Of a stretch of DNA of 64,000 nucleotides, positions 20,472 to 64,000 are shown one piece after another. Made by a program: the position numbers and the translations under genes. Source of the stretch: Rhodocyclaceae bacterium (GTDB taxonomy: Bacteria > Pseudomonadota > Gammaproteobacteria > Burkholderiales > Rhodocyclaceae); the NCBI GenBank assembly GCA_035444405.1, contig DAOMOP010000003.1, positions 4,423-68,422 on the forward strand, given 5' to 3'. Position 1 is the stretch's first letter. Each line of letters starts with the position of its first letter. The notes under the pieces were generated by a model. It was not told the DNA's origin and made no database searches. It saw nothing but the letters and a program-made list of their open reading frames with translations.

Positions 20472-20717
20472 GCGCATTCTCCTTCGTGTCGGACGAGGCC
20501 ATCACCCGCGGTTCGCCGGTGTGGCAAAGCGCAGCCGGCGACGGCCTTGCCCATGCCCGCCCGAGCGGACAGGCTGCCGCCCGGAGCCGCCATGCAGGGC
20601 CCGGGCCCGTAGTCTCATCATAGTTCACGGCCCTGCTCCGGCCCGAAGCGCCCGCGGCACCATGCTATGGTTGAGGCAAGGGCGCCGCGTCGCGCCGGCG
20701 TCGTCACCGACCCCGTC

Positions 20718-25269: not shown

Positions 25270-26177
25270 GCGCGGGTCGGGCGCAAGCCCCGTGCGAGCG
25301 GACCGGGTCGGCGACACGAGGGTCTGCGGAACGGCACGCGCCGGCGGCGCGCGACGAGGCGGCCTTGCCGTTCGAGGCGGGAGGCGTCACGACGCTGATC
25401 GAGGCGCGCGACCTCACGAAGGCGTTCGTGCGCGGGTCGCGCTGGTGGCCCGGCGGGAAACGCCGCACGCACGCGCTCGACGGCGTGTCGCTCGCGCTCG
25501 CGCGCGGCGCGAGCCTCGGCGTGGTCGGCGAATCGGGCTGCGGCAAATCGACGCTCGCGCGCATCCTGATCGGTCTCGATGCACCGAGCGCCGGGGCGGT
25601 GCTGTGGGAAGGCCGCGCGACCGCGCGCTTCACGCGCGCCGACTGGCGCCGTTACTGGCGCACGGTGCAGTACGTGTTCCAGGACGCACGCAGCGCGCTG
25701 AACCCGCGCCACACGATCGGCACCATCGTCGAGGCGCCGCTCGCGACGATGCTCGGGCTGTCGCGCGCGGAGCGGGCGCGGCGCGTGGCCGCGCTGCTCG
25801 AGCAGGTCGGCCTCGCGCCCGCGTTTCGCGACCGCTATCCGCACGAGCTCTCGGGCGGGCAGGCGCAGCGCATCGTGCTCGCGCGCGCGCTCGCGGTCGA
25901 GCCCGAGGTACTGATCCTCGACGAGCCTGTGTCCGCGCTCGACGTGTCGATCCAGGCGCAAGTGCTCGCCCTGCTCGCCGAGCTGCGCGACCGGCTCGTG
26001 CTGACCTATCTGTTCATCTCGCACGATCTGGCCGTCGTCGAGCAGCTGTGCCGCGACGTCGTCGTGATGAAGGACGGCCGCATCGTCGAGCGCGGCCGCC
26101 TCGACGCGGTGTTCCGCGCGCCGCAGGCGGACTACACGAAAACGCTGCTCGCGGCCGCGCGCGGCGCTGCAGCGTAA
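25266..26177 (+). CDS. ABC transporter ATP-binding protein (DppF/OppF-like)
   Basis: ATG 25266 in an ATGA overlap. GESGCGKST, LSGGQAQR, ILDEPVSALD. Confidence 0.85.
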   Translation: MSAGRAQAPCERTGSATRGSAERHAPAARDEAALPFEAGGVTTLIEARDLTKAFVRGSRWWPGGKRRTHALDGVSLALARGASLGVVGESGCGKSTLARILIGLDAPSAGAVLWEGRATARFTRADWRRYWRTVQYVFQDARSALNPRHTIGTIVEAPLATMLGLSRAERARRVAALLEQVGLAPAFRDRYPHELSGGQAQRIVLARALAVEPEVLILDEPVSALDVSIQAQVLALLAELRDRLVLTYLFISHDLAVVEQLCRDVVVMKDGRIVERGRLDAVFRAPQADYTKTLLAAARGAAA

Positions 26178-26287
26178 TGGCCTGCCTCACCTTCCGAGCC
26201 GGACAAACACGCCAGGAAGACATTGCAAATCCGGGGGCAAAGTAGTAACGTACCTACATCATTGATTCTGAGTGGGGGGGTATTCTC

Positions 26288-26542
26288 GTGGCCATTACGA
26301 CCCTGTCCAGTCGCGATCTCAACCAGGACGTGACCCGCGCGAAGAGGGCCGCCGAGCATGGCCCCGTGTTCATCACGGACCGTGGCAAGCCGGCACACGT
26401 GCTGCTGACCTTCGAGGAATACCAGCGGCTCACCCGGCAACGGCGCAACATCGCCGATGCGCTGGCGATGCCGGGAATCGAGGACATCGAATTCGAGCCG
26501 CCGCGCGTGAGCATCGAGATCCGGCCGGCTGACCTCTCATGA
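26288..26542 (+). CDS. Type II antitoxin, Phd/YefM family
   Basis: GTG 26288. GPVFITDRGKPAHVLLTFEEYQRL is typical. Overlaps the PIN gene start. Confidence 0.8.
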   Translation: MAITTLSSRDLNQDVTRAKRAAEHGPVFITDRGKPAHVLLTFEEYQRLTRQRRNIADALAMPGIEDIEFEPPRVSIEIRPADLS

Positions 26543-26961
26543 TGTTCGTGCTCGATACCAACGTGGTGTCGGAGCTGCGGAAGGTGCGCGCCGGCAAGGC
26601 CGATCCCAACGTCGCGGCCTGGGCGGAAAGCGTCGATGCGGCCGACCTCTTCGTCTCGGCCGTCACCATCATGGAGCTGGAAATCGGTGTCTTGCAGATC
26701 GAGCGGCGAGACGCCGGACAGGGCGCAATGATGCGCGCCTGGCTGGATCACCACGTATTGCCGGAATTCTCCGGGCGCGTGCTGCCGATCGATGCCGCCG
26801 TGGCGCAGCGCTGCGCCCGGCTGCATGTGCCGGATCGGCGCTCCGAGCGTGACGCGCTGATCGCCGCGACCGCGATCACGCATGGAATGACCGTGGTGAC
26901 GCGGAACGTGGCCGATTTCGAACCGACCGACGCTCTCGTACTGAACCCATGGACCGATTGA
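26539..26961 (+). CDS. vapC: Type II toxin, PIN domain (VapC/FitB-like)
   Basis: MFVLDTNVVSE..., conserved acidic residues (D, E, D...), C-terminal THGMTVVTRNVADF. Confidence 0.85.
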   Translation: MMFVLDTNVVSELRKVRAGKADPNVAAWAESVDAADLFVSAVTIMELEIGVLQIERRDAGQGAMMRAWLDHHVLPEFSGRVLPIDAAVAQRCARLHVPDRRSERDALIAATAITHGMTVVTRNVADFEPTDALVLNPWTD

Positions 26962-26986
26962 TCGACGCACGCCGTGCCGGCCCGGA

Positions 26987-27502
26987 ATGAGAATCGGCGT
27001 CGTCTCCGACACCCACATGCCCCGCTTCGCGAAGGCGTTGCCGCTCGCGCTGTGCGAGGGCCTCGCCGCGCAGCGCGTCGAGCGCATCCTGCACCTCGGT
27101 GACTTCACGACCCCGGCGGTCGCGGAGCTGTTCGCACGCATCGCACCGTTCGACGCCGTCGCCGGCAACAACGACCCGCCCGAGCTCGTGGCGCGCTTCG
27201 GCCGGCGCAAGATCGTCGTCCTCGACGGCGTGCGCATCGGCCTGGTGCACGGCGACGGCCGGCGCGGCAGCACGCTCGAGCGCGCGATCGCGGCGTTCGC
27301 GGGCGACGCCGTCGACGTGATCGTGTTCGGGCACAGCCATGTGCCGTATTGCGCGCGGCACGGCGACAGGTGGCTGCTCAACCCCGGCTCGCCGACCGAC
27401 AAGCGCCGCAACCCGCGCTACTCGTGGGCCTTGCTCGAGCTCGACGAGGGCGGGATCCGTGCGACGCTGCAGTTCTACGAGGACAAGCGCTGGGCCGAAT
27501 GA
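26987..27502 (+). CDS. Metallophosphoesterase, YfcE/MJ0936 family
   Basis: IGVVSDTHMP, HLGD, GNND, GHSH motifs. Confidence 0.8.
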   Translation: MRIGVVSDTHMPRFAKALPLALCEGLAAQRVERILHLGDFTTPAVAELFARIAPFDAVAGNNDPPELVARFGRRKIVVLDGVRIGLVHGDGRRGSTLERAIAAFAGDAVDVIVFGHSHVPYCARHGDRWLLNPGSPTDKRRNPRYSWALLELDEGGIRATLQFYEDKRWAE

Positions 27503-49593: not shown

Positions 49594-49719
49594 CTAACAG
49601 CAGCATGACATATACACGTGCGCTGATGTTGCCGCGAATGTATTATGCCGTTGGAGCAGCTCGAATCGGCACTCGTGAGTGAATGCTGCCCGCACCAATC
49701 GCTACCACGGCAAGGACGA

Positions 49720-50667
49720 ATGGCTCGACGTCGCTACCGAAAGAATGCGGGGCTCATTGAAGTCGCGCTGCAGTCGGACTGGAAGGTGTCCGCCGTGCTC
49801 GCCGTGACCGTCGTTGTCGTTGGCATCGGGCTCGTGCCGATGCTGTTCGATTCGGCCTCTCCGCTCGCGCCGCTCAGTACGGTGATTGCTCCGGCGGCTT
49901 GGCTGCTGGCGGGTATCCTCGGGTTCATCGCGCTCATCCGCTTCGTCACGACAGGCCGCACTTCGGATCAACGTGCTTACAAGCAGGCCGCGCGTATCCG
50001 GGCACAGCTGGACAACCGATCAGCTTCGGGTGCGCAGGATCGGCGCGAACCGTTCGAGTCCGCTGCCGCGCTGAATGTCTGCGCTCTGGAGGAAGACGCG
50101 CCGCCACGGCCCGAGTGCTGGTCGCTGGCCGTCCTCGATCGGATTGAATGGAAGCGCTTCGAAGATTTGTGTTGTGCCTTCTACCGTGAGAAGGGCATAC
50201 GTGCTGAAACCACACGTCTCGGCGCGGATGGCGGCATCGACATCCGTCTGTTTCAGGACCCCGACAATCCGGAGCGCCCCACCGCAATCGTCCAGTGCAA
50301 GGCGCTCAGCAAGCAGGTCGGCGTCAAACCGGTTCGTGAGCTACGCGGTGTGATGGCACACGAGAAGGTCGACAAAGCCTTCTTCATGGCCCCGAACGGC
50401 TTCACCGACGAGGCCCGCAGCTTCGCGGTCGAAAACCGCATCACGCTGCTCGACGGCAAACTGTTCCTCGCGATGCTGCAACGCTTGTCGAACGATGCAG
50501 GCAAGCGCCTGCTGGACTTCGCCACTGAGGGTGACTGGACGACCCCGACGTGCCCGAACTGCGGCACGAAGATGGCCGCGCGGGACAGCCGGCGTGGGCC
50601 GTTTTGGGGCTGTCCTGCTTACCCGAAATGCCGCGGAACTCTGCCGATGCGCGCAAGTGCGAGTTGA
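49720..50667 (+). CDS. Membrane-anchored Mrr-like (Mrr_cat) restriction endonuclease with a C-terminal topoisomerase-type C4 zinc ribbon
   Basis: ATG 49720 after AAGGA; the track start is 49645. Two TM segments. Nuclease core GADGGIDIRLF...AIVQCKA. CPNCG...WGCPAYPKC. Confidence 0.75.
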   Translation: MARRRYRKNAGLIEVALQSDWKVSAVLAVTVVVVGIGLVPMLFDSASPLAPLSTVIAPAAWLLAGILGFIALIRFVTTGRTSDQRAYKQAARIRAQLDNRSASGAQDRREPFESAAALNVCALEEDAPPRPECWSLAVLDRIEWKRFEDLCCAFYREKGIRAETTRLGADGGIDIRLFQDPDNPERPTAIVQCKALSKQVGVKPVRELRGVMAHEKVDKAFFMAPNGFTDEARSFAVENRITLLDGKLFLAMLQRLSNDAGKRLLDFATEGDWTTPTCPNCGTKMAARDSRRGPFWGCPAYPKCRGTLPMRASAS

Positions 50668-50821: not shown

Positions 50822-53800
50822 ATGAGCAATCCCTTCTTCGAGCATTCCATTCTCAACTCGCCCTACGCATACCCGGCCCGGCACTGGGAGCTGGACGAGC
50901 AAGGACAGCCGACGCAGAAAATCATCGAGCGTCGCCGCCGCGCGGAGTTCATCACGCCGATCCCGAAACCGCGCAAGCGCAAGGGTGCCGGCGTACAGGG
51001 GTCGCTGCTCTTCGACGAAGGCAAGGGTCTTTCCAACGACGCCCAGCAGTACGATCACACCGCCACGATCAACGCCGTGCGTGCCGAGGTGGACAAGTGG
51101 CGGCAGCTCCCGAACCCGCGCGACTGGCGCGTCACGCCAGAAACCGCCCGCCTGCTCCAGCACTGGCGCCACCACACCTTCAGCGGCATCCGTCCATTCT
51201 TCTGCCAGATCGAGGCGGTCGAAACCGCCATCTGGCTCACCGAGGTCGCGCCGCAGATCGGCAAGAACGGGCAGCGCTTTCTTGACCACCTTGCCAACGC
51301 CAACGCCGAAGCCAACCCGGAGCTGATGCGCCTGGCGCTCAAGCTCGCCACCGGTGCCGGCAAGACCACGGTGATGGCCATGCTCATCGCCTGGCAGACG
51401 ATCAACGCGGTGCGCTACCCGAACAGCAAGCGCTTCACCCGCGGATTCCTGCTGGTTGCGCCGGGGCTCACCATCCGCGACCGCTTGCGCGTGCTTCAGC
51501 CGATCGACCCCGACAGCTATTACGCCAGTCGCGAGCTGCTGCCCGGCGACATGCTGGGCGATCTTGATCGCGCTCGCATCGTCATCACCAACTACCATGC
51601 CTTCAAGCTGCGCGAACGCATGCCCCTGTCCAAGGGTGGCCGGCTGCTGCTGCAAGGCCGTGACGGCGCGCCGCTCGACACCCTCGAAACCGAAGGCCAG
51701 ATGCTTCAGCGCGTGATGCCCGAGTTGATGGGCATGAAGAACGTCATGGTCATCAACGACGAGGCGCACCACTGCTACCGCGAGAAGGCCGACCCGCTCA
51801 CTGACGAAGTCCTGAAGGGCGACGAGAAGAAAGAAGCCGCGCAGAACAACGAAGCCGCCCGTTTGTGGATCTCGGGCCTCGAAGCGGTCAAACGCAAGCT
51901 CGGCATCGCCCGGGTCATGGACCTCTCCGCCACGCCGTTCTTCCTGCGCGGCTCGGGCTACGTCGAGGGGACGCTGTTCCCCTGGACCATGAGCGACTTC
52001 TCGCTGATGGATGCCATCGAGTGCGGCATCGTCAAGCTGCCCCGCGTGCCGGTGGCCGACAACATCCCCGGCGGCGAGATGCCGAAGTTCCGCAACCTGT
52101 GGGAGCACATCCGCAGCCGCATGCCGAAGAAGGGCCGCGGCAAGGCCAAGACGCTCGACCCGCTCAGCTTGCCGGTAGAGCTGCAGACCGCACTCGAAGC
52201 CCTCTATGGCCACTATCAGAAGACCTACGAGCTGTGGGAGAAGGCCGGCATCCGCGTGCCGCCCTGCTTCATCGTCGTCTGCAACAACACCTCGACGTCG
52301 AAGCTCGTGTACGACTTCATCTCAGGCTTCCAGCGCGAGAACGACGACGGCTCCACCACGCTGGAGAACGGCCGCCTGCCGCTGTTCCGCAACTTCGACG
52401 AGCACGGCAACCCCGTCGCCCGCCCGCGCACCCTGCTGATCGACAGCGAGCAGCTCGAGTCCGGCGAGGCGCTGGACAAGAACTTCCGCGACATGGCCAC
52501 CGACGAGATCGAGCGCTTCCGCCGCGAGATCATCGAGCGCACGGGCGACCGTCAGCGCGCCGAGAACATCACCGACCAGGACCTGCTGCGCGAGGTCATG
52601 AACACCGTCGGCAAGGAAGGCAGGCTCGGCGAATCCATCCGCTGCGTGGTGTCCGTATCCATGCTCACCGAAGGCTGGGACGCGAATACCGTCACCCATG
52701 TGCTCGGCGTGCGCGCCTTCGGCACCCAGCTGCTGTGCGAGCAGGTCATCGGCCGTGCGCTGCGCCGCCAGTCCTACGATCTCAACGAAGAAGGGCTGTT
52801 CAACACCGAATACGCCGACGTGCTCGGCATCCCCTTCGATTTCACCGCCAAGCCCGTCGTCGCGCCACCCCAGCCGCCGCGCGAAACCATCCAGGTCAAG
52901 GCCGTGCGCCCGGATCGCGACGGACTCGAGATCCGCTTTCCGCGCGTGCAGGGCTACCGCGTGGAACTCCCCGAGGAGCGCCTCACCGCCGACTTCAACG
53001 ACGATTCGGTCCTCGTGCTCACGCCCGACCTGGTCGGCCCTTCGATCACGAAGAACGCGGGCATCATCGGCGAGGTCATCGACCTCAGCCTGGCGCACCT
53101 CGGCGACATGCGCCGCTCCACGCTGCTGATGCACCTCACCAAGCGCCTGCTCTACAGCAAATGGCGCGACCCCGGCGAGGAGCCCAAGCTCCACCTCTTC
53201 GGCCAGTTGAAGCGCATCACCAAGGAGTGGCTCGACACCTGCCTGCAGTGCAAGGGCGGCACCTATCCCGCCCAGCTCATGTACCAGGAGCTCGCCGACA
53301 TGGCCTGCGAGCGTATCACCGCCGGCATTACCCGCGCGCTCGAAGGCGAGCGCCCGATCAAGGCCGTGCCCGATCCCTACAACCCCACCGGCTCCACCGC
53401 CCACGTCAGCTTCAACACCTCGAAGACGGACCGCTGGCAGACCGACCCGCGTCGCAGCCATCTCAACTGGGTGATCCTCGATAGCGACTGGGAGGCTGAA
53501 TTCTGCCGCGTCGCCGAGGCGCATCCCCAAGTGCTCGCCTACGTCAAGAACCACAACCTCGGTCTCGAGGTGCCCTATCGCTACGGCTCCGAGACGCGTC
53601 GCTACCTGCCGGACTTCGTGGTGCTCGTGGACGACGGCAACGGCGAGGGTGACCCAATGAGCGACCCGCTGCACCTCGTCGTCGAGATCAAGGGCTACCG
53701 CCGCGAAGACGCCAAGGAGAAGAAGGCCACGATGGAAACCTACTGGGTGCCCGGTGTGAACAACCTGGGCCAGTACGGCCGCTGGGTCTTTGCCGAGTTC

Positions 53801-53893
53801 ACCGACGTGTGGCAGATGCAGGACGACTTTGCGAAGAAGGTGGAGGCGGAGTTCGAGCGGATGTTGCTGGCAGCAAGCGAAGGTAAATCATGA
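50822..53893 (+). CDS. res: Type III-like restriction enzyme Res subunit (SF2 helicase + C-terminal PD-(D/E)xK nuclease)
   Basis: N-terminus NPFFEHSILNSPYAYPARHWELD. Walker A LATGAGKTT, DEAH (NDEAHHCY). C-terminal YLPDFVVLV...LVVEIKG. Confidence 0.85.
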   Translation: MSNPFFEHSILNSPYAYPARHWELDEQGQPTQKIIERRRRAEFITPIPKPRKRKGAGVQGSLLFDEGKGLSNDAQQYDHTATINAVRAEVDKWRQLPNPRDWRVTPETARLLQHWRHHTFSGIRPFFCQIEAVETAIWLTEVAPQIGKNGQRFLDHLANANAEANPELMRLALKLATGAGKTTVMAMLIAWQTINAVRYPNSKRFTRGFLLVAPGLTIRDRLRVLQPIDPDSYYASRELLPGDMLGDLDRARIVITNYHAFKLRERMPLSKGGRLLLQGRDGAPLDTLETEGQMLQRVMPELMGMKNVMVINDEAHHCYREKADPLTDEVLKGDEKKEAAQNNEAARLWISGLEAVKRKLGIARVMDLSATPFFLRGSGYVEGTLFPWTMSDFSLMDAIECGIVKLPRVPVADNIPGGEMPKFRNLWEHIRSRMPKKGRGKAKTLDPLSLPVELQTALEALYGHYQKTYELWEKAGIRVPPCFIVVCNNTSTSKLVYDFISGFQRENDDGSTTLENGRLPLFRNFDEHGNPVARPRTLLIDSEQLESGEALDKNFRDMATDEIERFRREIIERTGDRQRAENITDQDLLREVMNTVGKEGRLGESIRCVVSVSMLTEGWDANTVTHVLGVRAFGTQLLCEQVIGRALRRQSYDLNEEGLFNTEYADVLGIPFDFTAKPVVAPPQPPRETIQVKAVRPDRDGLEIRFPRVQGYRVELPEERLTADFNDDSVLVLTPDLVGPSITKNAGIIGEVIDLSLAHLGDMRRSTLLMHLTKRLLYSKWRDPGEEPKLHLFGQLKRITKEWLDTCLQCKGGTYPAQLMYQELADMACERITAGITRALEGERPIKAVPDPYNPTGSTAHVSFNTSKTDRWQTDPRRSHLNWVILDSDWEAEFCRVAEAHPQVLAYVKNHNLGLEVPYRYGSETRRYLPDFVVLVDDGNGEGDPMSDPLHLVVEIKGYRREDAKEKKATMETYWVPGVNNLGQYGRWVFAEFTDVWQMQDDFAKKVEAEFERMLLAASEGKS

Positions 53894-54039: not shown

Positions 54040-54158
54040 TCACCCCACATCCGCCCCTTGGCAGTACGCCCTCTCAACCATCCCGAGAGTGTGCCGAACC
54101 CCTGGGGCTTTTCCTTTTTCGGCGTGCAATACCGTCCGGTTTGCGGCGAGGCTCGGCG

Positions 54159-55034
54159 ATGAGCACGGGCCGCATCGCCATCCTGATCGACGGCGGCTTC
54201 TTCCTGAAGCGGCTTCCACGGCTAGTCCCCGCAAATCGCTGCGAGTCTCCGGGCAAGATCGTTGCATGTATTCGTCATCTTTGCCGAACGCACGTCAAGC
54301 TGCTGACCGGCAGCAACGAGTCTCGTTGGCAGCAACACGTGTACCGCATCTTCTTCTACGACGCGGTGCCCTACGATGGCAAGGCTCACCACCCAATCGA
54401 CAATCGCTCCATTGATTTTGCCAAGTCAGCCATTGCCCGGGATCGTCTCGCGCTGTTCGAGCTCCTGCGCAAGGAGCGCAAGCTGGCGCTGCGTCTCGGC
54501 AAAGTCATTCGTGATCACGACTGGGCGATCTCCCCTTCGTTGACCAAAAGGTTGCTGCGGACCCGCAACTGGGTGACTGCCCTCGATGGGCTCGATCCTG
54601 ATGCTGCAGCCGATCCGGGAGATGGGTCCGTCAAGCTGAGTCTGTCGCAAGAGGAGGCGCGCAGCCTGATCGAGCTGCGCCAGCTCTGGCGATCGCTCGA
54701 CGGAGGAACGGTCAACCTTGGTCTGCGCCAGAAGGGCGTCGACATGCGCATTGGGCTGGATATCGCCAGCCTGACGCTGAAAAAGCAGGCCGATACCATC
54801 GTTCTGGTCGCAGGGGACAGTGACTTCGTTCCGGCCGCCAAACTTGCTCGGCGTGAAGGCATGGAGTTCATCCTCGATCCGCTCTGGCAAAAGGTGAATG
54901 CCGACCTTTTCGAACATATCGATGGACTTCAGTCCGGTCTCAGGCGGCCCGGTATGAGCTCCCCGTCGCCTCACGTACCCCTCGCAGCGAACACAGAAGC
55001 ACCGATGGCCGGTGCGCCGGAAGCAGAGGACTGA
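54159..55034 (+). CDS. NYN-domain (LabA/DUF88-like, PIN-fold) protein nested between res and mod
   Basis: ATG 54159 (MSTGRIAILIDGGFF...); the track start is TTG 54141. Late motif GVDMRIGLD...IVLVAGDSDFVPAAKLARREG. Confidence 0.75.
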   Translation: MSTGRIAILIDGGFFLKRLPRLVPANRCESPGKIVACIRHLCRTHVKLLTGSNESRWQQHVYRIFFYDAVPYDGKAHHPIDNRSIDFAKSAIARDRLALFELLRKERKLALRLGKVIRDHDWAISPSLTKRLLRTRNWVTALDGLDPDAAADPGDGSVKLSLSQEEARSLIELRQLWRSLDGGTVNLGLRQKGVDMRIGLDIASLTLKKQADTIVLVAGDSDFVPAAKLARREGMEFILDPLWQKVNADLFEHIDGLQSGLRRPGMSSPSPHVPLAANTEAPMAGAPEAED

Positions 55035-55037
55035 ACC

Positions 55038-57842
55038 TTGGCCCGCAAGCAGAATTCCACCTCCCTCACCGTCGAAGCCCTTACCCACGACGACGCGACC
55101 CGCAAGAACATCCCCACCGCCGAGTACCAATCGGTGATGCAGAAGGACGAGCGCTCGCCCGTCCGCGTCGCCTACGAGCGCCGCAACCGCGACCTCGATC
55201 CGCAACTGGTGTGGCGCGGCAAGGATCAGCAGGACTGGTCCGACCTCGTCGTGAACGCCCCGCCGCTCTACATCCAGGAAAAGGTCCACCCCAAGGCGCT
55301 GATCGACGACCTGAAGAAGCAGAGCGAGGCGCGCTCGGAAGGCGCCGACGCCCAGCCCGACCTCTTCGTCGACTTCAACGGCTTGCCCGACGATAACGCC
55401 AAGACCGAGTTCTACCGCCACGACGGCCACTGGTCGAACCGCATGATCCTCGGCGACAGCCTGCAGGTCATGGCCAGCCTCGCCGAGCGCGAAGGCCTGC
55501 GCGGCAAGGTGCAATGCATCTATTTCGATCCGCCCTACGGCATCAAATTCAACAGCAACTTCCAGTGGAGCACCACCAGTCGCGACGTCAAGGACGGCAA
55601 TGCCGAACACATCACCCGCGAGCCGGAGCAGGTCAAGGCATTCCGGGACACCTGGCGCGACGGGATTCACTCGTATCTCACGTATTTGCGCGACCGGCTG
55701 ACGGTGGCGCGGGATCTGTTGACGGAGTCGGGATCGATCTTCGTCCAGATTGGTGACGAGAATGTGCACCGGGTAAGGGCCGTGATGGATGAGGTGTTTG
55801 GGGAGGAGAATGCCTGCGCCCAAATTTCGGTGCTCAAGACAGCCGGCCAGACGTCTGAGTTGATCGCAGGAACGGCGGATTATGTTCTTTGGTTCGCGAG
55901 GAACAAAGGAACGGCGAAATTCCGTACTCCGTTGACGGAAAAAGGTCTTGAGGCAGACAAATCTGGTGTTTACCGATGGGTTCGGGATGATGATGGATCT
56001 AATAGACGCATTTCGGACGACGAGCGGTTCGCCGGCGTAACGCGTGGTGTTTTTCGTTACGACAATCTGACCTCTCAGCGTCCCCCGGGCTCGTTCCCCG
56101 TGAACCTGCGCGGAAAGACTTTCGGTTCAGGTAAGGGATACTGGAAGACCGGTGAAATCGGCATGGCGCGCCTAATAAAATCTGATCGTGTCGGAATTGC
56201 TGCGAACAGTCTGACCTACGTGCGATTCCTTGACGATTTCCGCGCACAAGCAATCGGCAATGTCTGGACTGATACGGGTACCGGCAGTTTCACCGATGAA
56301 AAGATCTACGTCGTTCAGAGCGGGACTAAGCTCGTTCAGCGCTGCTTGTTGATGGCCACTGACCCCGGCGACCTCGTCCTCGACCCCACCTGCGGCTCCG
56401 GCACTACCGCATATGTCGCCGAACAATGGGGCCGGCGCTGGATCACCATCGATACCTCCCGCGTCGCCTTGGCGCTCGCCCGTGCCCGCATCATGGGCGC
56501 GCGCTACCCCTACTACCAGCTCGCCGACAGCCGCGAAGGCCAGTTGAAGGAAGCCGAACTTACCCGCAGTGCGCCGTCCAGCCAGCCCACCCGGGGCAGC
56601 ATCACGCACGGCTTCATCTATGAGCGCGTGCCGCACATCACGCTCAAGTCGATCGCCAACAACGCGGAGATCGACGTCATCTGGGAGCACTACCAGCAGA
56701 CCATCGAACCCCTGCGCCAGCAACTGAACCAGGCGCTCGGCAAGACCTGGGAAGAATGGGAAATCCCCCGCGAGCCCGGCGCCGAATGGCCCGGCGCCGC
56801 AAAGCAGGCCCACGCCGATTGGTGGCAGGCCCGCATCGCCCGCCAGAAGGAGATCGACGCCTCCATCGCCGCCAAGGCCGATACCGAATACCTCTACGAC
56901 AAGCCTTACGAGGACAAGAAGAAGGTCCGCGTCGCCGGCCCCTTCACCGTCGAAAGCCTGTCGCCGCACCGCATGCTCGGCGTGGATGAAAACGGCGACA
57001 TCATCGACGAGCGCAACCGCGCAGCCGAACCGGATGCCGGCTATGGCGATGGACCGCGCGAGGAACGCGACTTCACCCGCATGATCCTCGAAAACCTCAA
57101 GACCGCCGGCGTGCAACAGGCACACAAGGAAGACCGCATCGCCTTCACCTCCCTCGTGCCTTGGCCCGGCGACCTGATCTGCGCCGAAGGCCGCTACATC
57201 GAGGGCGATCCCGAGTCAGGCAAGGAGAGACGTGCCGCCATCTTCATCGGCCCCGAGTTCGGCACCGTCTCCCGCCCCGACCTCGTCGAAGCCGCCCGCG
57301 AAGCCGGCGACGCCGACTTCGACGTGCTCATCGCCTGCGCCTTCAACTACGACGCCCACTCCAGCGAGTTCGAAAAGCTCGGCCGCATCCCGGTGCTCAA
57401 GGCGCGCATGAACGCCGACCTCCACATGGCCGACGACCTCAAGAACACAGGGAAGGGCAACCTCTTCGTCATCTTCGGCGAACCCGACATCGACATCCTC
57501 GAAGTTGGAGACGGCAAATTCCAAGTCAAGGTCAACGGCGTCGACGTCTTCCACCCCAACTCCGGCGAAGTCCGCAGCGACGGCCCCGAGGGCATCGCCT
57601 GCTGGTTCATCGACACCGACTACAACATGGAATCCTTCTTCGTCCGTCACGCCTACTTCCTCGGCGCGAATGACCCGTACAAGGCGTTGAAGACGACGCT
57701 GAAGGCGGAGATTGATGCGGATGCCTGGGCGACGCTGAACAGCGACACGTCACGGCCGTTCGAGAAGCCGAATTCCGGGCGGATTGCGGTGAAGGTGATC
57801 AATCACCTGGGGGACGAGGTGATGAAGGTGTTTAGACTTTGA
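55038..57842 (+). CDS. mod: Site-specific DNA methyltransferase (beta-class N6A/N4C, Type III-like Mod), 934 aa
   Basis: TTG start 55038, 3 nt after the NYN stop. Motif IV IYFDPPYG precedes motif I DPTCGSGTT. Long C-terminal extension. Confidence 0.85.
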   Translation: MARKQNSTSLTVEALTHDDATRKNIPTAEYQSVMQKDERSPVRVAYERRNRDLDPQLVWRGKDQQDWSDLVVNAPPLYIQEKVHPKALIDDLKKQSEARSEGADAQPDLFVDFNGLPDDNAKTEFYRHDGHWSNRMILGDSLQVMASLAEREGLRGKVQCIYFDPPYGIKFNSNFQWSTTSRDVKDGNAEHITREPEQVKAFRDTWRDGIHSYLTYLRDRLTVARDLLTESGSIFVQIGDENVHRVRAVMDEVFGEENACAQISVLKTAGQTSELIAGTADYVLWFARNKGTAKFRTPLTEKGLEADKSGVYRWVRDDDGSNRRISDDERFAGVTRGVFRYDNLTSQRPPGSFPVNLRGKTFGSGKGYWKTGEIGMARLIKSDRVGIAANSLTYVRFLDDFRAQAIGNVWTDTGTGSFTDEKIYVVQSGTKLVQRCLLMATDPGDLVLDPTCGSGTTAYVAEQWGRRWITIDTSRVALALARARIMGARYPYYQLADSREGQLKEAELTRSAPSSQPTRGSITHGFIYERVPHITLKSIANNAEIDVIWEHYQQTIEPLRQQLNQALGKTWEEWEIPREPGAEWPGAAKQAHADWWQARIARQKEIDASIAAKADTEYLYDKPYEDKKKVRVAGPFTVESLSPHRMLGVDENGDIIDERNRAAEPDAGYGDGPREERDFTRMILENLKTAGVQQAHKEDRIAFTSLVPWPGDLICAEGRYIEGDPESGKERRAAIFIGPEFGTVSRPDLVEAAREAGDADFDVLIACAFNYDAHSSEFEKLGRIPVLKARMNADLHMADDLKNTGKGNLFVIFGEPDIDILEVGDGKFQVKVNGVDVFHPNSGEVRSDGPEGIACWFIDTDYNMESFFVRHAYFLGANDPYKALKTTLKAEIDADAWATLNSDTSRPFEKPNSGRIAVKVINHLGDEVMKVFRL

Positions 57843-57876
57843 TCGCGTGATCGAAAGACAACAAGGCGAGCGACTG

Positions 57877-58728
57877 ATGAGTTTCCCGAGACCGGATCCA
57901 TTCTTGAGTATCCGAGTTCATAACCTTGATCTGGATCCTTCCCTATCTGCGTTGTGCGTTGGATACGAACGTGGGGAGTGGCGTGCACGCCAACTGGCAG
58001 ATCACGTCATGGACTGGTTGCCGGAGTTTGCACTTACTGCCACGGAATGCGCCGCATTAGGTCATCAGAATGCGACAAAACTGATGCGGAGTGCTGCCAG
58101 ACGGGTCTACGAATCAAAGAAGTTCGAGAGGCGAGGCGAATTTGGTGAACTCCTTCTTCATGCCGCGATAAGACAGACATTTGATTCTCTCCCAGCAGTT
58201 TCGAAGATTTACTACAAGTCCGCCAACAATGACACGGTGAAGGGCTTCGATGCTGTCCACGTTGTGGGGACTCCTGACGAGCTTGAGTTGTGGTTAGGTG
58301 AAGCAAAATTCTACAACGACATCTCGCGAGCGATCTCTGACGTAGTTGCAGAGCTTGAGGCTCACCTTGGCACGGACTATCTGCGCGACGAGTTCGCGCT
58401 GATCGTCAATAAAATCGACCAAAAATGGCCTCATGCTGAAGTGCTGCGAAAACTACTTCAGCCGGAAGTCTCCCTTGATGAAGTATTTCAGAGAGTGTGT
58501 ATCCCTGTTTTGCTGACATACGACAGTCCGTGTATTTCGGAACACCAGTCTTGTGACGCGAGTTATGCACGGTCGTTCGAACAGGAGATCACGAAACACT
58601 ACAAGACCTTCTCGCGATGCAACCTGCCCAAGGAGACCCGGGTCCACTTATTCCTACTTCCACTTCAGAAGAAGGCAGCCCTTGTGAAGATCCTGGATGA
58701 AAGACTCAAGCTATGGCAGCAGCTATGA
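57877..58728 (+). CDS. hamA: Hachiman HamA (DUF1837, PD-(D/E)xK nuclease-like)
   Basis: ATG 57877; GTG 57847 is an alternative. GEFGELLLH...KGFDAVHV...LWLGEAKFY. Immediately followed by, and overlapping, an SF2 helicase gene. Visibly lower G+C than the flanks. Confidence 0.7.
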   Translation: MSFPRPDPFLSIRVHNLDLDPSLSALCVGYERGEWRARQLADHVMDWLPEFALTATECAALGHQNATKLMRSAARRVYESKKFERRGEFGELLLHAAIRQTFDSLPAVSKIYYKSANNDTVKGFDAVHVVGTPDELELWLGEAKFYNDISRAISDVVAELEAHLGTDYLRDEFALIVNKIDQKWPHAEVLRKLLQPEVSLDEVFQRVCIPVLLTYDSPCISEHQSCDASYARSFEQEITKHYKTFSRCNLPKETRVHLFLLPLQKKAALVKILDERLKLWQQL

Positions 58729-60845
58729 ATATTACTGCCCTGAGAGACACTCTGCGCGTCCCGGAAAAACTGCAGCAGCAAGCTTTCAGCGTTCTGCAGG
58801 ATATCTCGCGTCTCGTAGCCAGCCCTGAGCATGAGTCTGTGGCAAACGAGATGGTTCTGCGGGCTCTCGAATGTCGAGATTATTTTCATCCGTACCAAGA
58901 TATACTCGACTCACTCGTGCGCGCCGTAGGATTGTTTCCATATCTCGAGCAAGATGGTCTGAGTTTTCGGGATGCAGTGGCCTATGAGTTCCATCGTCCA
59001 GAGAATATGGGTGAAGAGTTCGTGTTTCACCGAGAGCAGGCGGAAATATATCGACGTCTGCTGGATGGTGATAGCGTTATCCTCAGTGCGCCGACTAGCT
59101 TTGGTAAAAGCAAGATAATTGATGCTCTCATTGCGTCGGGCCGGTTCCGTAATGTGGTTGTAGTCGTTCCGACTTTGGCATTGATCGATGAAACGAGACG
59201 ACGTCTTTCGCAGTTTTCGGAGCGTTTCAAGATTGTTACGCATGTCTCGCAGGAGCCAGCGGATTCAAATATCTTTGTCCTTACTGCCGAACGAGCTATT
59301 GCCTACGAGCGTTTTCCTCTCATAGAGTTCTTTGTCATCGATGAGTTCTACAAACTGGACTCCATTTCCAACGACAGTACGCGTGCGGTTGCGCTGAATC
59401 AGGCGTTCTATAAGCTTCGTAAGGCCGGAGGTCAGTTCTACCTTCTCGGGCCAAGTATTCAACATATTCCTAGCGGGCTCGAAGCGGCATTCAAGTGCTA
59501 TTTTTATCCAACTAAGTTCGCTACCGTAGTGTCGGAGCAAATTAAGGTACCTGGTGACGGTGACGACATTGATCGTCTCATTGAGCTGTGCGAAACGCTT
59601 ACGGATCCAACGCTTGTCTTCTGCAGGTCCCCTGCGCGCGTGAATGAAGTTGCGCATGCCCTATTGGCGCGGGGAGTGGGTATTGACGCGCCGGAACTTT
59701 CACCTGCTGCTGAATGGTCAGGTCGCAACTATCATCAGGAGTGGGTGCTAAGCAAGTCGCTGCCTAGAGGAATCGGAATTCACCATGGAAAGCTCCCGCG
59801 TGCCTTGGCGCAGTACGTGGTGCGTATGTTTAATGATCTCAAGCTGCGCTTCTTGATTTGTACGTCAACTCTTATTGAAGGGGTGAATACGAAGGCAAAG
59901 AACGTTGTGATATTCGACAACAGGATTGCTCGCGAAAAGATCGATTTCTTTACCTTCAATAACATCAAGGGTCGGTCTGGGAGGATGTTCGAGCATTTTG
60001 TCGGGAATGTGTATCTTTTTAACGATCCTCCTACTGAGAATTTGCCCTTTGTTGATTTTCCTTTGTTTACTCAAAATCAAGATGCGCCAGACAGCTTGTT
60101 GGTGCAGATGGACGATGGCGATCTCGTTCCGTCGTCGCGCGAACGGATGCGAAAGTATCAGGATCAGAATGTTCTGCCAGTCTCAACGCTACGAGAAAAT
60201 TCCTCAATTGATCCAGACGCCCAGATGCGGCTCGCTAGTCATTTGATGCAGGCGCCAAGGGAATGGTCGGAAAGTCTTAGTTGGAGTAGTTTCCCAACCA
60301 GTCAGCAGCTTGAAGCGGTGTGCGAGCTTATTTGGTCGTTCTTGGTGCAGGCTAGTCGAAGTCGTGGGGGGGTGTTTTCCGCGAGGCAATTGGCATTCAA
60401 AGTGTGGCAGATGAAGAGGGTTCCCGATACATCAGAAAGAGTCAGACAGGAGCTTCGACCGGGAAAGTATGCTGCTAGATCACCAGATGAAGCCGTCGAA
60501 CGAGTTCTAGAGTTTGAGAGGACATGGGCGAGCTTTGAGTTGCCGCGTTATCTAATGGCGGTGTCGCGGATTCAGCGTACTGTTTTTGAACGTATGGGTT
60601 TGCCATTCGGGGATTACAGCGGTTTTGCATCTCAGGTCGAGTGCCTTTTTCATACCCCAGTTGTTGCTGCGCTCGATGAGTATGGCGTTCCGCTTCCAAT
60701 GGGCGTTAAGATCTCCAATGCCCTAGGGGAGACTGACGATCTCGATGCTGCATTGGCCAAGCTCAAGCGGCTAAGAGGTTCGAGGCTGAATTTAGATGTG
60801 TTTGAGACGGAGCTACTGCGCGACGCAAAGGCATACCTTCCTTGA
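58725..60845 (+). CDS. hamB: Hachiman HamB (Ski2-like SF2 helicase)
   Basis: ATG 58725 in an ATGA overlap with the hamA stop; 58713 is an alternative. Motif I SAPTSFGKS, motif II VIDEFY, TSTLIEGVN, GRSGR. Confidence 0.75.
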   Translation: MNITALRDTLRVPEKLQQQAFSVLQDISRLVASPEHESVANEMVLRALECRDYFHPYQDILDSLVRAVGLFPYLEQDGLSFRDAVAYEFHRPENMGEEFVFHREQAEIYRRLLDGDSVILSAPTSFGKSKIIDALIASGRFRNVVVVVPTLALIDETRRRLSQFSERFKIVTHVSQEPADSNIFVLTAERAIAYERFPLIEFFVIDEFYKLDSISNDSTRAVALNQAFYKLRKAGGQFYLLGPSIQHIPSGLEAAFKCYFYPTKFATVVSEQIKVPGDGDDIDRLIELCETLTDPTLVFCRSPARVNEVAHALLARGVGIDAPELSPAAEWSGRNYHQEWVLSKSLPRGIGIHHGKLPRALAQYVVRMFNDLKLRFLICTSTLIEGVNTKAKNVVIFDNRIAREKIDFFTFNNIKGRSGRMFEHFVGNVYLFNDPPTENLPFVDFPLFTQNQDAPDSLLVQMDDGDLVPSSRERMRKYQDQNVLPVSTLRENSSIDPDAQMRLASHLMQAPREWSESLSWSSFPTSQQLEAVCELIWSFLVQASRSRGGVFSARQLAFKVWQMKRVPDTSERVRQELRPGKYAARSPDEAVERVLEFERTWASFELPRYLMAVSRIQRTVFERMGLPFGDYSGFASQVECLFHTPVVAALDEYGVPLPMGVKISNALGETDDLDAALAKLKRLRGSRLNLDVFETELLRDAKAYLP

Positions 60846-61026
60846 AGACATTTCAGCGCGAGTTGATTTTGCGTGTTCGCCGTTTCGGGGCTGGCGGTAG
60901 GTCTCGGTAAGTATCGAGTTGAGAGCGGGAGTTGCAAGACGAGGGGAAGGTGAGGCTGATCGGTCAAAGGCGCTGGGCCAGGTGGTTTGCCACCACGGGG
61001 GCTAAAGGACACGAAGTAAAGAGCTA

Positions 61027-61048
61027 GACCTTTAGGTGACCTTTAGGT
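61027..61048. repeat. Tandem direct repeat 2 x GACCTTTAGGT, each unit containing the palindrome ACCT-TT-AGGT; operator candidate
   Basis: Read directly. ~70-90 nt upstream of ATG 61120. Confidence 0.5.
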
Positions 61049-61119
61049 GCCGTCCTGGACAGCGTTTTCTTCCTTATCGTCAAAGACTTCCAAATACGGA
61101 GAAATCAAGCCCCGACGTT

Positions 61120-63192
61120 ATGGACTTCCGCATCGCCGACACCTTCACCGACACCCTCGCCAAGCTCACCGGTGAGGAGCAGAAGGCCGTCAAGACCACG
61201 GCCTTCGATCTCCAACTGAACCCCGCCAGTCCGGGATTGAGCTTCCACAAGCTCGATCAGGCGCGCGACAAGCATTTCTGGTCGCTGCGGGCGAGCAGCG
61301 ATCTGCGGATCATCGTGCACAAGACTGCGAGCAGCCTCTTGCTGTGCTACGTGGACCATCACGACAAGGCTTATCGCTGGGCCGAGCGGCGCAAGCTGGA
61401 GACGCATCCGACCACCGGTGCGGCGCAGTTGGTGGAGATCCGCGAGACGGTGCAGGAGATCACCGTACCGAAGTACGTCGAGGCAGCAGCGCTTGCCCCG
61501 GCAAAGCCGGCCTTGTTCTGCGGGGTGACCGATAGTGCGCTGCTGAGTTACGGCGTGCCGATGGAGTGGCTCGATGACGTGCGACGGGCCGATGAGGACA
61601 GCCTGCTGGCGCTGGCCGAGCACTTGCCGAGCGAGGCGGCGGAGGCCTTGCTGGAACTGGCGACAGGCGGCACGCCGCAACTTGCGCCGGCTGCGGAGGC
61701 GGGCGCGGACCCGTTTGACCATCCGGATGCGCTGCGTCGTTTCCGGGTGATGAACGATGTCGAAGAACTCGAGCGGGCGCTCGCCTACCCGTGGGACAAG
61801 TGGATGCTGTTTCTGCACCCGGCGCAGCGCCAGTGGGTGGAGCGCAGTTATGGCGGGCCCGCGCGGATCGCGGGGTCGGCAGGCACGGGCAAGACGATCG
61901 TCGCCCTCCACCGGGCGGCCTACCTTGCCCGCAGCAACCCCGAAGCCAGGGTGCTGCTGACGACTTTTTCCGACACCCTGGCCAACGCCTTGCGCGCTCG
62001 GCTGAGACGGCTGATCAGCAATGAACCCCGACTGGCGGAACGGCTGGAAGTGCATGCGATGAATGCCGTTGGCGAGCGGCTCTACGAGCGCCATTTCGGT
62101 CGTCCGCGCATCGCGTCGGCTGACTGGATCCGCGAACGCCTTGTTGGCGCGGCGCAGGCTGAGGGGGCGAACCGGTTCAGCGCGCGCTTCCTGCTTTCGG
62201 AGTGGGCTGAGGTTGTGGATGCCTGGCAACTGGAATCGTGGGAGGCGTATCGCGACATCAAGCGGCTGGGGCGCAAGACGCGCCTGCCGGAAGCCCAGCG
62301 GGCGGCACTGTGGTCGGTGTTCGACACGGTACGCAAGCAGTTGGCCGACGAGGGGCAGGTGACCCATGCGGGCATTTTCACCCGTTTGGTGGCGGAAATG
62401 GCCGGGCGTAAGCATCCGCCGTTCGATTTCGTGGTGGTCGATGAGGCACAGGACATCAGCGTGGCGCAGTTGCGCTTCCTCGCAGCGGTGGGGGCCGAAC
62501 GGCCCAACGGCTTGTTCTTTGCGGGTGACCTGGGGCAGCGGATATTCCAGCAGCCGTTCTCGTGGAAGGCGCTCGGGGTGGATGTGCGGGGTCGGTCGCG
62601 CACGCTGCATATCAACTACCGCACCTCCCACCAAATCCGCAGCCAGGCCGACCGCTTGCTCGGGCCGGAGCTGGCAGACGTCGACGGCAATGCGGAAAGT
62701 CGGCGCAGCACGGTGTCGATGTTCAACGGGCCGGCGCCCGAAATTGCCGTCTATGCCAGCGAAGAGGAGGAGGGTGACGCGGTGGCTGCCTGGCTGGAGG
62801 CACGCACCGCCGATGGAATGATGCCGCACGAGATCGGCGTTTTCGTCCGCTCGCCATCTGAGCTCGAACGCGCCCAAGCGGCGGTGAAGCAGGCGGGGTT
62901 GCCGTTCAGGATGCTCGACGAGCACGCCGAAACGACCAGCGGGCAGGTATCGATCGGCACCATGCATCTGGCCAAGGGGCTGGAGTTTCGCGCCGTGGCG
63001 GTGATGGCCTGCGACGATGAAATCATCCCGCTACAGGCGCGGATCGAGACGGTCGCCGACGATGCTGACCTGGAGGACGTTTACAACACTGAGCGGCACC
63101 TGCTCTACGTCGCCTGCACGCGGGCGCGTGATCACTTGGTGGTGACCAGCGTGGAGCCGGCGTCGGAATTCCTGGATGACTTGCGGATGTAG
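61120..63192 (+). CDS. RelE/ParE-like N-terminal domain fused to a complete UvrD/Rep-type SF1 helicase
   Basis: ATG 61120 (MDFRIADTF...). N-domain LNPASPGLSFHKL...WSLRASSDLRIIVHK...LLLCYVDHHDKAY. Helicase motifs GSAGTGKT, VVVDEAQD, GDLGQRIF, NYRTSHQI, TMHLAKGLEF, YVACTRAR. Confidence 0.75.
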   Translation: MDFRIADTFTDTLAKLTGEEQKAVKTTAFDLQLNPASPGLSFHKLDQARDKHFWSLRASSDLRIIVHKTASSLLLCYVDHHDKAYRWAERRKLETHPTTGAAQLVEIRETVQEITVPKYVEAAALAPAKPALFCGVTDSALLSYGVPMEWLDDVRRADEDSLLALAEHLPSEAAEALLELATGGTPQLAPAAEAGADPFDHPDALRRFRVMNDVEELERALAYPWDKWMLFLHPAQRQWVERSYGGPARIAGSAGTGKTIVALHRAAYLARSNPEARVLLTTFSDTLANALRARLRRLISNEPRLAERLEVHAMNAVGERLYERHFGRPRIASADWIRERLVGAAQAEGANRFSARFLLSEWAEVVDAWQLESWEAYRDIKRLGRKTRLPEAQRAALWSVFDTVRKQLADEGQVTHAGIFTRLVAEMAGRKHPPFDFVVVDEAQDISVAQLRFLAAVGAERPNGLFFAGDLGQRIFQQPFSWKALGVDVRGRSRTLHINYRTSHQIRSQADRLLGPELADVDGNAESRRSTVSMFNGPAPEIAVYASEEEEGDAVAAWLEARTADGMMPHEIGVFVRSPSELERAQAAVKQAGLPFRMLDEHAETTSGQVSIGTMHLAKGLEFRAVAVMACDDEIIPLQARIETVADDADLEDVYNTERHLLYVACTRARDHLVVTSVEPASEFLDDLRM

Positions 63193-63249
63193 TTGCTGGC
63201 CGGTGAGCGCGTACTTACGAATGCGTGCCGAATGGACGGGGGAGGTTGA

Positions 63250-64000
63250 ATGGCATCGCACGTCGAACGCATTCTGATCCTGGCGAAGACCTATCCTTCG
63301 CCCAGCGCACAATACGTCGAGACCTCCTGCGTGGCGGGGATCAACGAGCACGGGGTGATGCGGCGGCTCTTCCCGGTGCCGTTCAGGCTCGTCGAGCGAG
63401 ACCAGCAGTTCAAGAAATGGCAGTGGGTCAACGTCCGGGTCGCGAAGGCGAGCAACGACCACCGTATCGAGAGCCACAAGATCTACGTCGACACCATCCA
63501 GTGCGGTGACGCCATCGATACCCGGAAGCAATGGGCCGCCCGGTGGCCGTGGATCGAGAAGATTCCGACGTTCTCGAATTTCGACGACCTCGAGGCCAGC
63601 CGGCTTGCTGACGGGACGACGCTGGCGCTGGTGCGCCCGAAGGCTGTTCTTGGGCTCGAAATCGAAAAGGCGCGAAATGCGGACTGGACCGACGACGAAA
63701 AGGAGAAGCTGCTGCGCGAGCAGATGCAGGGGGATCTGTTCAGTGAAGCGGAGGTGAGAAAGGAGATCCGCGAGTTGAAGAAGATTCCGTTCGACTTCTA
63801 CTACCGGTACCTCTGCGACACGCCGGACGGCGAGAAGACCTTTACCCACAAGATCGTCGATTGGGAGGCCGGCGCGCTGTACTGGAAATGCCGCACGAGC
63901 CATGGAGCAGGCTGGGACGTGCCGTTTCGCCAGATGTACGGCGAGAAGCTCTTGCAGTCCGATCTCATGCTCATGATGGGGAACATCCACCGCTTTCCCC
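63250..64000 (+). CDS. Hypothetical protein, partial (runs off the right edge); no family recognised
   Basis: ATG 63250 preceded by GGAGG at 63241. Open to the window end (250 codons): MASHVERILILAKTYPSPSAQYVETSCVAGINEHG... Absent from the track because it has no stop in the window. Confidence 0.65.
   Translation, partial: MASHVERILILAKTYPSPSAQYVETSCVAGINEHGVMRRLFPVPFRLVERDQQFKKWQWVNVRVAKASNDHRIESHKIYVDTIQCGDAIDTRKQWAARWPWIEKIPTFSNFDDLEASRLADGTTLALVRPKAVLGLEIEKARNADWTDDEKEKLLREQMQGDLFSEAEVRKEIRELKKIPFDFYYRYLCDTPDGEKTFTHKIVDWEAGALYWKCRTSHGAGWDVPFRQMYGEKLLQSDLMLMMGNIHRFP

Follow-up and report, generated by a model that had tools for sequence, protein, structure and literature searches.

Does a helicase gene with a toxin-like front end form a defence cassette of its own with the gene behind it, or does it belong to the genes in front of it? 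This question is raised by a stretch of 64,000 nucleotides (nt) from a Rhodocyclaceae bacterium (assembly GCA_035444405.1, contig DAOMOP010000003.1, positions 4,423 to 68,422), referred to here as the window. Near its end, a first-pass annotation had described a 690-amino-acid (aa) protein that joins a RelE/ParE-like N-terminal region to a UvrD-type helicase, followed by an open reading frame (ORF), here ORF2, that it could place in no family, and had proposed the two genes as an autonomous and undescribed defence cassette. Our analysis leads to a different answer. Very probably, two unrelated modules meet here: the helicase gene is the terminal gene of a Res-Mod restriction-modification (R-M) operon that carries defence cargo, and ORF2 is one half of a pair with a DUF488 gene.

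Neighbours of the helicase gene and of ORF2

The following features are needed to judge whether the two genes belong together.

60846-61119, no strand: 274-nt spacer with two tandem copies of GACCTTTAGGT (61027-61048), lineage-specific, found by sequence inspection
61120-63192, + strand: helicase ORF, 690 aa
63250-64000, + strand: ORF2, first 250 of 275 codons, a PADLOC PDC-M19B match whose DUF488 partner lies just past the window end
L001:5465-6731, convergent: ORF2 and the DUF488 gene on an extended contig, covering window 63250-64000 and beyond

The arrangement of the two genes had been described correctly. ORF2 starts with an ATG at 63250, 57 nt past the helicase stop codon and preceded by a Shine-Dalgarno sequence (GGAGG), and runs for 250 codons up to the window end. 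Three Logan contigs with an identical helicase display the same adjacency, and the complete ORF2 found there has 275 aa. The 15-kb Logan contig L001 reaches beyond the window, showing ORF2 followed by a convergent gene for a 160-aa DUF488 protein, with a 44-nt overlap of their 3' ends.

The shared direction, the short distance, the ribosome-binding site of ORF2 and the adjacency in the Logan contigs are the points that favour an autonomous cassette of two or more genes, together with a remnant of ORF2 in Aromatoleum bremense. The comparison of loci speaks against it. We surveyed 85 helicase loci (80 from metagenomes and five from genomes or Logan) and a further 30 from IMG/VR, and neither ORF2 nor the DUF488 gene was found at any of them (0/85 and 0/30, 0/115 together). 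Likewise, the N-domain and middle region of the helicase protein were absent within 8 kb of ORF2 in all of 80 species-representative genome loci (0/80), one of which displayed an unrelated UvrD-core match of 23% identity. ORF2 has instead a near-universal other partner, the DUF488 gene, which lies tail-to-tail with it in 78 of the 80 loci, the remaining two stopping at a contig edge. Co-occurrence of the homologues of the two genes had been named beforehand as a check of the cassette, and these homologues proved not to be syntenic.

The closest named relative, Aromatoleum bremense (CP059467.1), documents the loss of one gene without the other. Its helicase is intact and 87% identical to that of the window, and it is followed after 57 nt by a 98-codon ORF2 remnant (L084:10131-10427) and then by katG. 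The first ~53 residues of the remnant are recognisable, with a small internal deletion, and it records a deletion that took the remainder of ORF2 together with the DUF488 gene. Since A. bremense keeps only a remnant of ORF2 beside an intact helicase, the adjacency is lineage-specific and dispensable; ORF2-DUF488 reached the side of the helicase only in the Aromatoleum-like lineage.

The tandem palindromes upstream of the helicase had been taken as a sign of autonomy. The repeat itself is real, being a perfect tandem duplication of GACCTTTAGGT with 4-bp inverted arms in each copy. Searches for promoter-like and terminator-like sites and for Rfam matches found nothing alongside it, and no sequence similar to the 274-nt spacer precedes the helicase in the 85 other loci. 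Hence, we rejected the repeat as the operator or promoter of a separate cassette. Because it is lineage-specific, and because in most loci only 2-30 nt separate the helicase start from the preceding gene, the helicase does not make up a unit of its own. Collectively, the cassette proposed at first is highly improbable. The relevant units are Res-Mod-helicase and ORF2-DUF488, and the pairing of helicase and ORF2 does not exist.

The Res-Mod-helicase operon and its cargo

Upstream of the helicase, the window displays the genes listed below.

50822-53893, + strand: Res, 1023-aa restriction subunit of superfamily 2 (SF2) helicase type, first gene of the operon (NCBIfam NF046055, Pfam ResIII)
54141-55034, + strand: NYN-domain gene between Res and Mod, at the minor cargo site (Pfam NYN, E 1.4e-8)
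55038-57842, + strand: Mod, 934-aa Type III-like N6/N4 DNA methyltransferase (PADLOC MTase_III PDLC03632, Pfam N6_N4_Mtase)
57847-60845, + strand: Hachiman cargo at the Mod/helicase junction, HamA 57847-58728 and HamB 58713-60845 (PADLOC)

These genes and the helicase form a Res-[NYN]-Mod-[Hachiman]-helicase operon. The Hachiman and Type III-like R-M systems noticed at first were recovered by profile searches: Res matches the BPTD_3080 family restriction endonuclease model NF046055 with 1386 bits (cutoff 800), Mod matches the PADLOC model MTase_III PDLC03632 end to end with 1470 bits, and PADLOC identified HamA (E 5e-125) and HamB (E 1e-246).

The association of the helicase with Res and Mod extends far beyond the window. 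Same-strand upstream homologues of the window genes were found for Mod in 64 and for Res in 41 of the 85 helicase loci, and nearly all loci without them hold too little upstream DNA. Where a locus includes 8 kb or more of upstream DNA, Mod was present in 35/35 cases and Res in 33/35. Of 11 plasmids with a close helicase homologue, ten encoded Mod, nine of them with the helicase downstream on the same strand, and on a conjugative plasmid of Pseudomonas avellanae (p1NCPPB4222, positions 18967-27027) the three genes are contiguous, free of cargo and annotated. The IMG/VR contigs with close helicase homologues (>= 59% identical) displayed the Res-Mod-helicase layout wherever upstream DNA suffices. 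The three genes also diverge jointly. Among the 29 loci in which all three are complete, Mantel correlations of pairwise divergence were 0.88 for helicase and Res, 0.66 for helicase and Mod, and 0.73 for Mod and Res (p <= 5e-4). The helicase thus follows Res and Mod about as closely as these two follow each other, which indicates that it is inherited along with them.

What differs between loci is the content of the junctions. The distances between the Mod stop codon and the helicase start fall into three classes: 2-6 nt (17 loci), 84-788 nt (8 loci) and 1.5-7.2 kb (43 loci). The inserts from 51 loci fell into ~60 ORF clusters, nearly all on the operon strand, and they frequently end 10-30 nt before the helicase ATG. 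PADLOC searches with cluster representatives returned Hachiman, IetA+IetS (Ietas), NsnA/B/C, GajA+GajB, the reverse transcriptase RT_UG14 of DRT, long pAgo, Ppl, PDC-S06 (with RhuM), PDC-S68, PDC-M66, and OLD/AriA-like ATPases. Hachiman occupies this junction also in L097 and L147, and the other loci hold different systems or none. In the window, the Hachiman segment has a GC content of 0.48-0.52, compared with 0.64-0.68 in the flanking Res, Mod and helicase. In the surveyed loci the helicase invariably closes the operon, and cargo enters ahead of it and not behind it. A second site lies between Res and Mod, which are at most 25 nt apart in 25 of 40 loci and separated by an insert of 155-2020 nt in the other 15; the NYN gene of the window has a 42%-identical homologue at the same position in L187. 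The Mod/helicase junction is therefore an operon-internal landing site for defence systems, and the Res/Mod junction is a second, less used one. That operons of Type I R-M and of BREX can harbour defence genes is already known.

Several cargo clusters had no PADLOC match, among them a 1552-aa ORF (L131:5221-9876), a 204-aa ORF found at 4 loci (L157:5249-5860) and a pair of 255 and 205 aa (L159:6630-7909). Such ORFs are candidate new defence genes because of the site they occupy, and since known systems are found there, unannotated inserts such as the 1552-aa ORF and clusters c3, c10 and c19 are strong candidates. Two conserved anchors bracketing a defence site make the Res-Mod-[cargo]-helicase layout useful whatever the mechanism of the helicase.

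Like classical Type III R-M systems (EcoP15I-like), the operon combines a Res with an SF2 ResIII ATPase and a Mod with an N6/N4 methyltransferase. It differs from them in its res-mod gene order, in the larger size of both proteins, in its conserved third gene and in its two internal cargo sites, and the PADLOC REase_III models barely match the window Res (E 3.5e-4). As a separate observation, the GC content of Mod falls to 0.55-0.58 at window positions 55400-56400, compared with 0.64 in the rest of the gene. This is also the worst-aligning part of Mod between loci, and it may be an exchanged target-recognition domain.

The helicase is linked to methyltransferases in more distant relatives as well. 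Full-length homologues of ~33% identity (E 4e-102) are encoded by the third gene after a large DNA methyltransferase (~1330 aa in Thermus, ~1640 aa in E. coli and Pseudanabaena) and a DEAD/DEAH helicase of 1840-2120 aa. These units are carried by E. coli IncY plasmids (L170, NZ_AP027623.1 11266-24953), a Thermus megaplasmid (L171) and a Pseudanabaena plasmid (L173). Meanwhile, the IMG/VR contigs L195 and L199, which encode similarly distant helicases, displayed a ~2100-aa ORF without assigned annotation immediately upstream. The recurrence of the link with unrelated backbones argues for a functional tie of the helicase to methylation-based systems.

The ORF2-DUF488 pair

The first-pass annotation had left ORF2 outside any family. 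This holds for Pfam and NCBIfam, which returned no match, and fails for PADLOC, where ORF2 matches PDC-M19B (E 1.3e-53 in its truncated form, E 6e-56 in full). The adjacent DUF488 protein matches PDC-M19A (E 9e-34). ORF2 therefore already belongs to a named PADLOC candidate, PDC-M19. PDC systems are unpublished and unvalidated phage-defence candidates of PADLOC (PMC11811056). The match of the 160-aa DUF488 protein is not full-length: it covers positions 151-288 of the 294-position PDC-M19A model, its C-terminal half, and positions 91-225 of the 234 of a second model.

The protein collection searched contains more than 1700 homologues of ORF2; none of them bears a name, and identities are typically 66-71%. 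The pair spans Beta- and Gammaproteobacteria and a few other phyla, and its genes overlap at their 3' ends by ~40 nt in most loci. Its flanks are highly variable, with 284 flanking ORFs falling into 232 clusters, and the nearest neighbours include Type I and Type III restriction enzymes, Hma, DUF499, BrxH (BREX) and DrmD (DISARM). ORF2-DUF488 is a mobile, convergently transcribed, 3'-overlapping pair. The earlier view that the helicase gene and ORF2 both sit among defence genes holds for each module: Res/Mod and cargo accompany the helicase, and R-M, Hma, BREX and DISARM genes are among the neighbours of ORF2.

PDB profile searches returned nothing for ORF2 or for the DUF488 protein. The AlphaFold2 model of an 88%-identical ORF2 homologue (P0001) was poor, with a predicted local distance difference test score (pLDDT) of 65, and its Foldseek matches were RPA, POT1, TEBP and ribosomal S12, with whole-chain template modelling (TM) scores of at most 0.3. 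This gives a weak hint of tandem OB folds, i.e. of nucleic-acid binding. In the literature searched, PDC-M19 was not mentioned, no account of the ORF2-DUF488 pair was found, and the sole relevant mention of DUF488 concerned a ParB-CTPase::DUF488-HTH fusion that binds CTP.

Two side observations concern this pair. Genes of a defence candidate do not usually overlap tail-to-tail in a conserved manner, as these do, and the overlap suggests antisense or transcriptional-interference regulation. In addition, a co-directional ORF of ~900 aa (up to 1554 aa) precedes ORF2 homologues in 6-7 genomes (L004:5175-7958, with homologues in L005, L009, L015, L022, L043 and L054), ending ~40 nt ahead of them (595 nt in L054). 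This commonest left neighbour of the pair matched nothing in PADLOC or the PDB. Two possible readings are an optional third PDC-M19 partner and a spurious long ORF in GC-rich DNA.

The helicase protein and its possible role

The helicase protein is divided into three parts.

61120-61455, + strand: N-domain of predicted RelE/YoeB fold, aa 1-112 (AlphaFold2, Foldseek, YoeB alignment)
61456-61809, + strand: helical, conserved middle region, aa 113-230 (motifs in an alignment of 14 homologues)
61810-63192, + strand: UvrD/Rep-type core of helicase superfamily 1 (SF1), aa 231-690 and stop codon (Pfam, PDB profile search, PADLOC)

The complete SF1 core that had been read from the sequence was borne out. 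Pfam places UvrD-helicase at residues 233-477 (64.7 bits) and UvrD_C at 602-678 (61.9 bits), both above cutoffs, and motifs I (GSAGTGKT), II (DEAQD), III (GDxxQ), IV (NYRT), V and VI are invariant or nearly so in 14 homologues down to 43% identity. A PDB profile search with the core matched UvrD, PcrA, Rep, UvrD1 and HelD. The NCBIfam equivalogs of UvrD, PcrA, Rep and HelD score only 37-75 bits against cutoffs of 419-1170. Because the core domains and motifs are complete and the equivalog scores lie far under their cutoffs, the protein is predicted to be a complete UvrD-type SF1A helicase that is no orthologue of a housekeeping enzyme. The family is very large: among 8000 scored candidates, the best 120 are all ~690 aa long and 73-99% identical. 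The generic names used for its members, helicase or 3'-5' exonuclease in NCBI/RefSeq, would fit a housekeeping UvrD/Rep paralogue beside an unrelated hypothetical gene, neither of them defence-related. We consider this reading barely credible, given scores of 50-75 bits against cutoffs of 900-1170 for UvrD, PcrA and Rep, the occurrence of the helicase on plasmids and in variable islands beside R-M genes and defence cargo, and the PADLOC match and variable contexts of ORF2. JGI labels many of the same proteins "RelE of RelBE".

The best PADLOC model for the helicase is C3a187 "NERD+UvrD" (E 1.4e-29), and GajB models also matched, partially. The protein thus resembles GajB of Gabija and NERD-UvrD proteins in that its compact SF1 core of UvrD type occurs among defence genes. 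It differs from NERD-UvrD in its N-domain, which is predicted to be RelE-fold and not NERD. The distinction from Gabija drawn earlier is correct, as the neighbours HamB and ORF2 are neither GajA- nor OLD-like, and Gabija membership was rejected on the lack of a GajA partner and the partial GajB matches. True GajA+GajB pairs do occur at these loci, as separate cargo upstream of the helicase in L104 and L137.

The middle region keeps the motifs LLSYGVPxEW, HLPxEAxEALLELA and HPDAxRRF across the homologue alignment. A PDB sequence search with aa 111-232 returned only designed armadillo repeats, which are compositional matches.

The RelE/ParE-like character of the N-terminal region, first proposed from a residue pattern, is supported by structure prediction. 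AlphaFold2 modelled residues 1-112 from a 35-sequence alignment with a mean pLDDT of 92.5 and the topology beta-alpha-alpha-beta4-alpha, the superfamily fold being beta-alpha-alpha-beta-beta-beta(-alpha). The top 50 Foldseek matches in the PDB were RelE, YoeB, YafQ, HigB, ParE or related toxin-family entries or the CARF-RelE protein Cami1, the only exceptions being ranks 25 and 40, both chains of Txp40, an insecticidal toxin. The matches had a probability of 1.00 and target-normalised TM scores of up to 0.75, and the best was YoeB (2a6r; E 4.8e-5). By this model, the N-domain has a RelE/ParE fold. Among 35 non-redundant family members, sub-threshold Pfam signals were found for HigB-like_toxin in 30 (best 5e-5) and for ParE_like in 14. 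A PDB search with the sequence profile of the N-domain was negative, with one chance match to TTC5.

For the alignments we used E. coli YoeB, and we take E46, R65 and H83/Y84 to be the catalytic residues of the ribonuclease (RNase) branch. With hhalign, residues 51-81 of the N-domain align with YoeB 53-83, placing R63 opposite R65 and H81 opposite H83. In a MAFFT alignment that includes homologues of 28-43% identity from E. coli, Thermus, Pseudanabaena and Qipengyuania, H/E43, S55, R63 and H81 occupy the columns of YoeB E46, S57, R65 and H83. Since YoeB-type catalytic positions appear to be retained, the N-domain may well be catalytically competent.

The N-domain shares its predicted fold with the RelE/YoeB/HigB/ParE superfamily, and with YoeB, in these alignments, the motif FWS..R...H. 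Unlike the toxins of this superfamily, it is fused to 580 aa of middle region and helicase, stays below Pfam thresholds and lacks an adjacent cognate antitoxin gene. No small ORF was found in the 2-6-nt Mod-helicase gaps of 17 loci, and the gene preceding the helicase in the window encodes HamB. Without an antitoxin gene, restraint of the toxin domain would be intramolecular, through the middle region or helicase, or would come from Res/Mod.

The helicase could also be a DNA-processing accessory of restriction, clearing or unwinding ends after cleavage or loading Res-Mod, with the RelE-fold domain serving in non-catalytic docking or nucleic-acid binding. The closeness of the core to the DNA helicases UvrD, PcrA, Rep and HelD, the tight coupling of the gene to Mod (2-6 nt or overlapping) and the NCBI names would all fit this role. 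The putative catalytic Glu/His, Arg and His equivalents of YoeB, kept from the Aromatoleum-like lineage to Thermus and cyanobacteria, argue for retained catalysis, and to our knowledge no R-M type (Types I-IV) requires an SF1 helicase. We regard an accessory role as quite unlikely.

As a tentative model, which we hold to be less likely than not, we propose that the helicase acts as a second line of defence, coupled to restriction, and shuts off translation. Its SF1 motor or ATPase would detect DNA ends, or else Res-Mod complexes that are stalled or inhibited. Sensing would release the RelE-like RNase domain, and the freed domain would cleave ribosome-bound mRNA, so that the infection is aborted. 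Conceptual models are PrrC in the EcoprrI Type I locus and Cami1, a defence protein in which a RelE domain is joined to a sensor domain. The proposed view of PrrC is that the R-M enzyme keeps it silent and that it serves as a backup once restriction is countered (PMC12707154). With PrrC/EcoprrI and other restriction-linked ORFs (RloC, Type I "rlo" genes), the helicase would share a translation-targeting RNase, here putative, joined to a nucleoside triphosphatase (NTPase) regulatory domain inside an R-M operon. It differs in every component: the R-M system is Type III-like (BPTD_3080 Res and Mod) where that of PrrC is Type Ic, an SF1 UvrD-type helicase takes the place of the ABC-type ATPase as the NTPase, the putative RNase has a predicted RelE/YoeB fold and is no anticodon nuclease, and the gene is terminal, whereas that of PrrC lies between hsd genes. 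If the helicase is functionally tied to Res-Mod, this would be a second example, mechanistically unlike PrrC, of an R-M system with its own translation-targeting backup effector, and a case of a RelE-family domain under the control of an SF1 helicase instead of an antitoxin.

Several observations weigh against these interpretations. Res-Mod loci of the BPTD_3080 family occur without the helicase on Picosynechococcus pAQ5 (L174) and on a Methylomagnum plasmid (NZ_AP019789.1, L175). Because Res-Mod occurs without it, the helicase is dispensable for restriction and might itself be cargo. These loci carry other cargo in its place, a CBASS pair after Mod in Methylomagnum and a UPF0175/DUF3368 toxin-antitoxin pair between Res and Mod on pAQ5, and the BPTD_3080-type R-M backbone is thus a general carrier of defence cargo. 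A Qipengyuania plasmid has the helicase between a RecB-like nuclease and a DUF4011 protein, a defence context without R-M, and Tistrella carries it on the strand opposite Mod. Functional coupling of the helicase to Res/Mod is a proposal, as synteny and correlated divergence are equally explicable by co-transfer of a fixed island. In the window protein, the N-domain reaches only 14.7 bits with HigB-like_toxin (cutoff 27, E 0.04-0.07), and its putative RNase activity is read only from residues aligned with YoeB. As for ORF2, its co-directional position 57 nt behind the helicase makes co-transcription by read-through possible, and the OB-fold hint is weak at a pLDDT of 65.

The loci without the helicase and the Qipengyuania context would suit a protein that works by itself in defence or abortive infection, occupies the cargo site downstream of Mod much as Hachiman or Gabija do, and became fixed in one clade with no functional link to restriction. 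The union of sensor-like and effector-like domains in one chain would suit it as well. This explanation has to account for a helicase that is always the last gene, with cargo going in before it and not after, and whose divergence follows that of Res (r 0.88). The ~33%-identity homologues, again third genes behind an unrelated pair of methyltransferase and SF2 helicase in several phyla, are hard to explain without a link to methylation-based systems. We regard a self-contained protein as unlikely, and as somewhat less likely than the restriction-coupled effector.

In its broadest form, the effector model would make RelE-fold::UvrD helicases widespread dedicated third components of methylation-based restriction on two unrelated backbones, BPTD_3080 Res with Type III-like Mod and a giant methyltransferase with a ~2100-aa DEAD/DEAH helicase, turning SF1 DNA sensing into ribosome-dependent mRNA cleavage as an abortive-infection backstop. 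The Mod/helicase junction would then be a selected docking site at which at least 12 defence systems use the R-M promoter. We put this forward as a doubtful generalisation. In the literature searched, whose coverage was incomplete, we found no account of the Res-Mod-helicase unit, of the RelE::UvrD architecture or of the cargo site.

Further genes mark the extent of the island on both sides. Directly upstream of Res, positions 49645-50667 (+ strand) encode a 340-aa Mrr_cat protein with a C-terminal topoisomerase-type zinc ribbon, likely another defence gene of the island. Beyond the window, the DUF488 gene on L001 is followed (L001:6799-9919) by a methyltransferase::PLD-nuclease fusion of 411 aa, with a weak PADLOC match to Type IV restriction enzymes, and by two PhdYeFM/PIN toxin-antitoxin pairs. 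The housekeeping genes mreB and an amidase gene come next on this contig, indicating that the island ends ~4 kb beyond the window.

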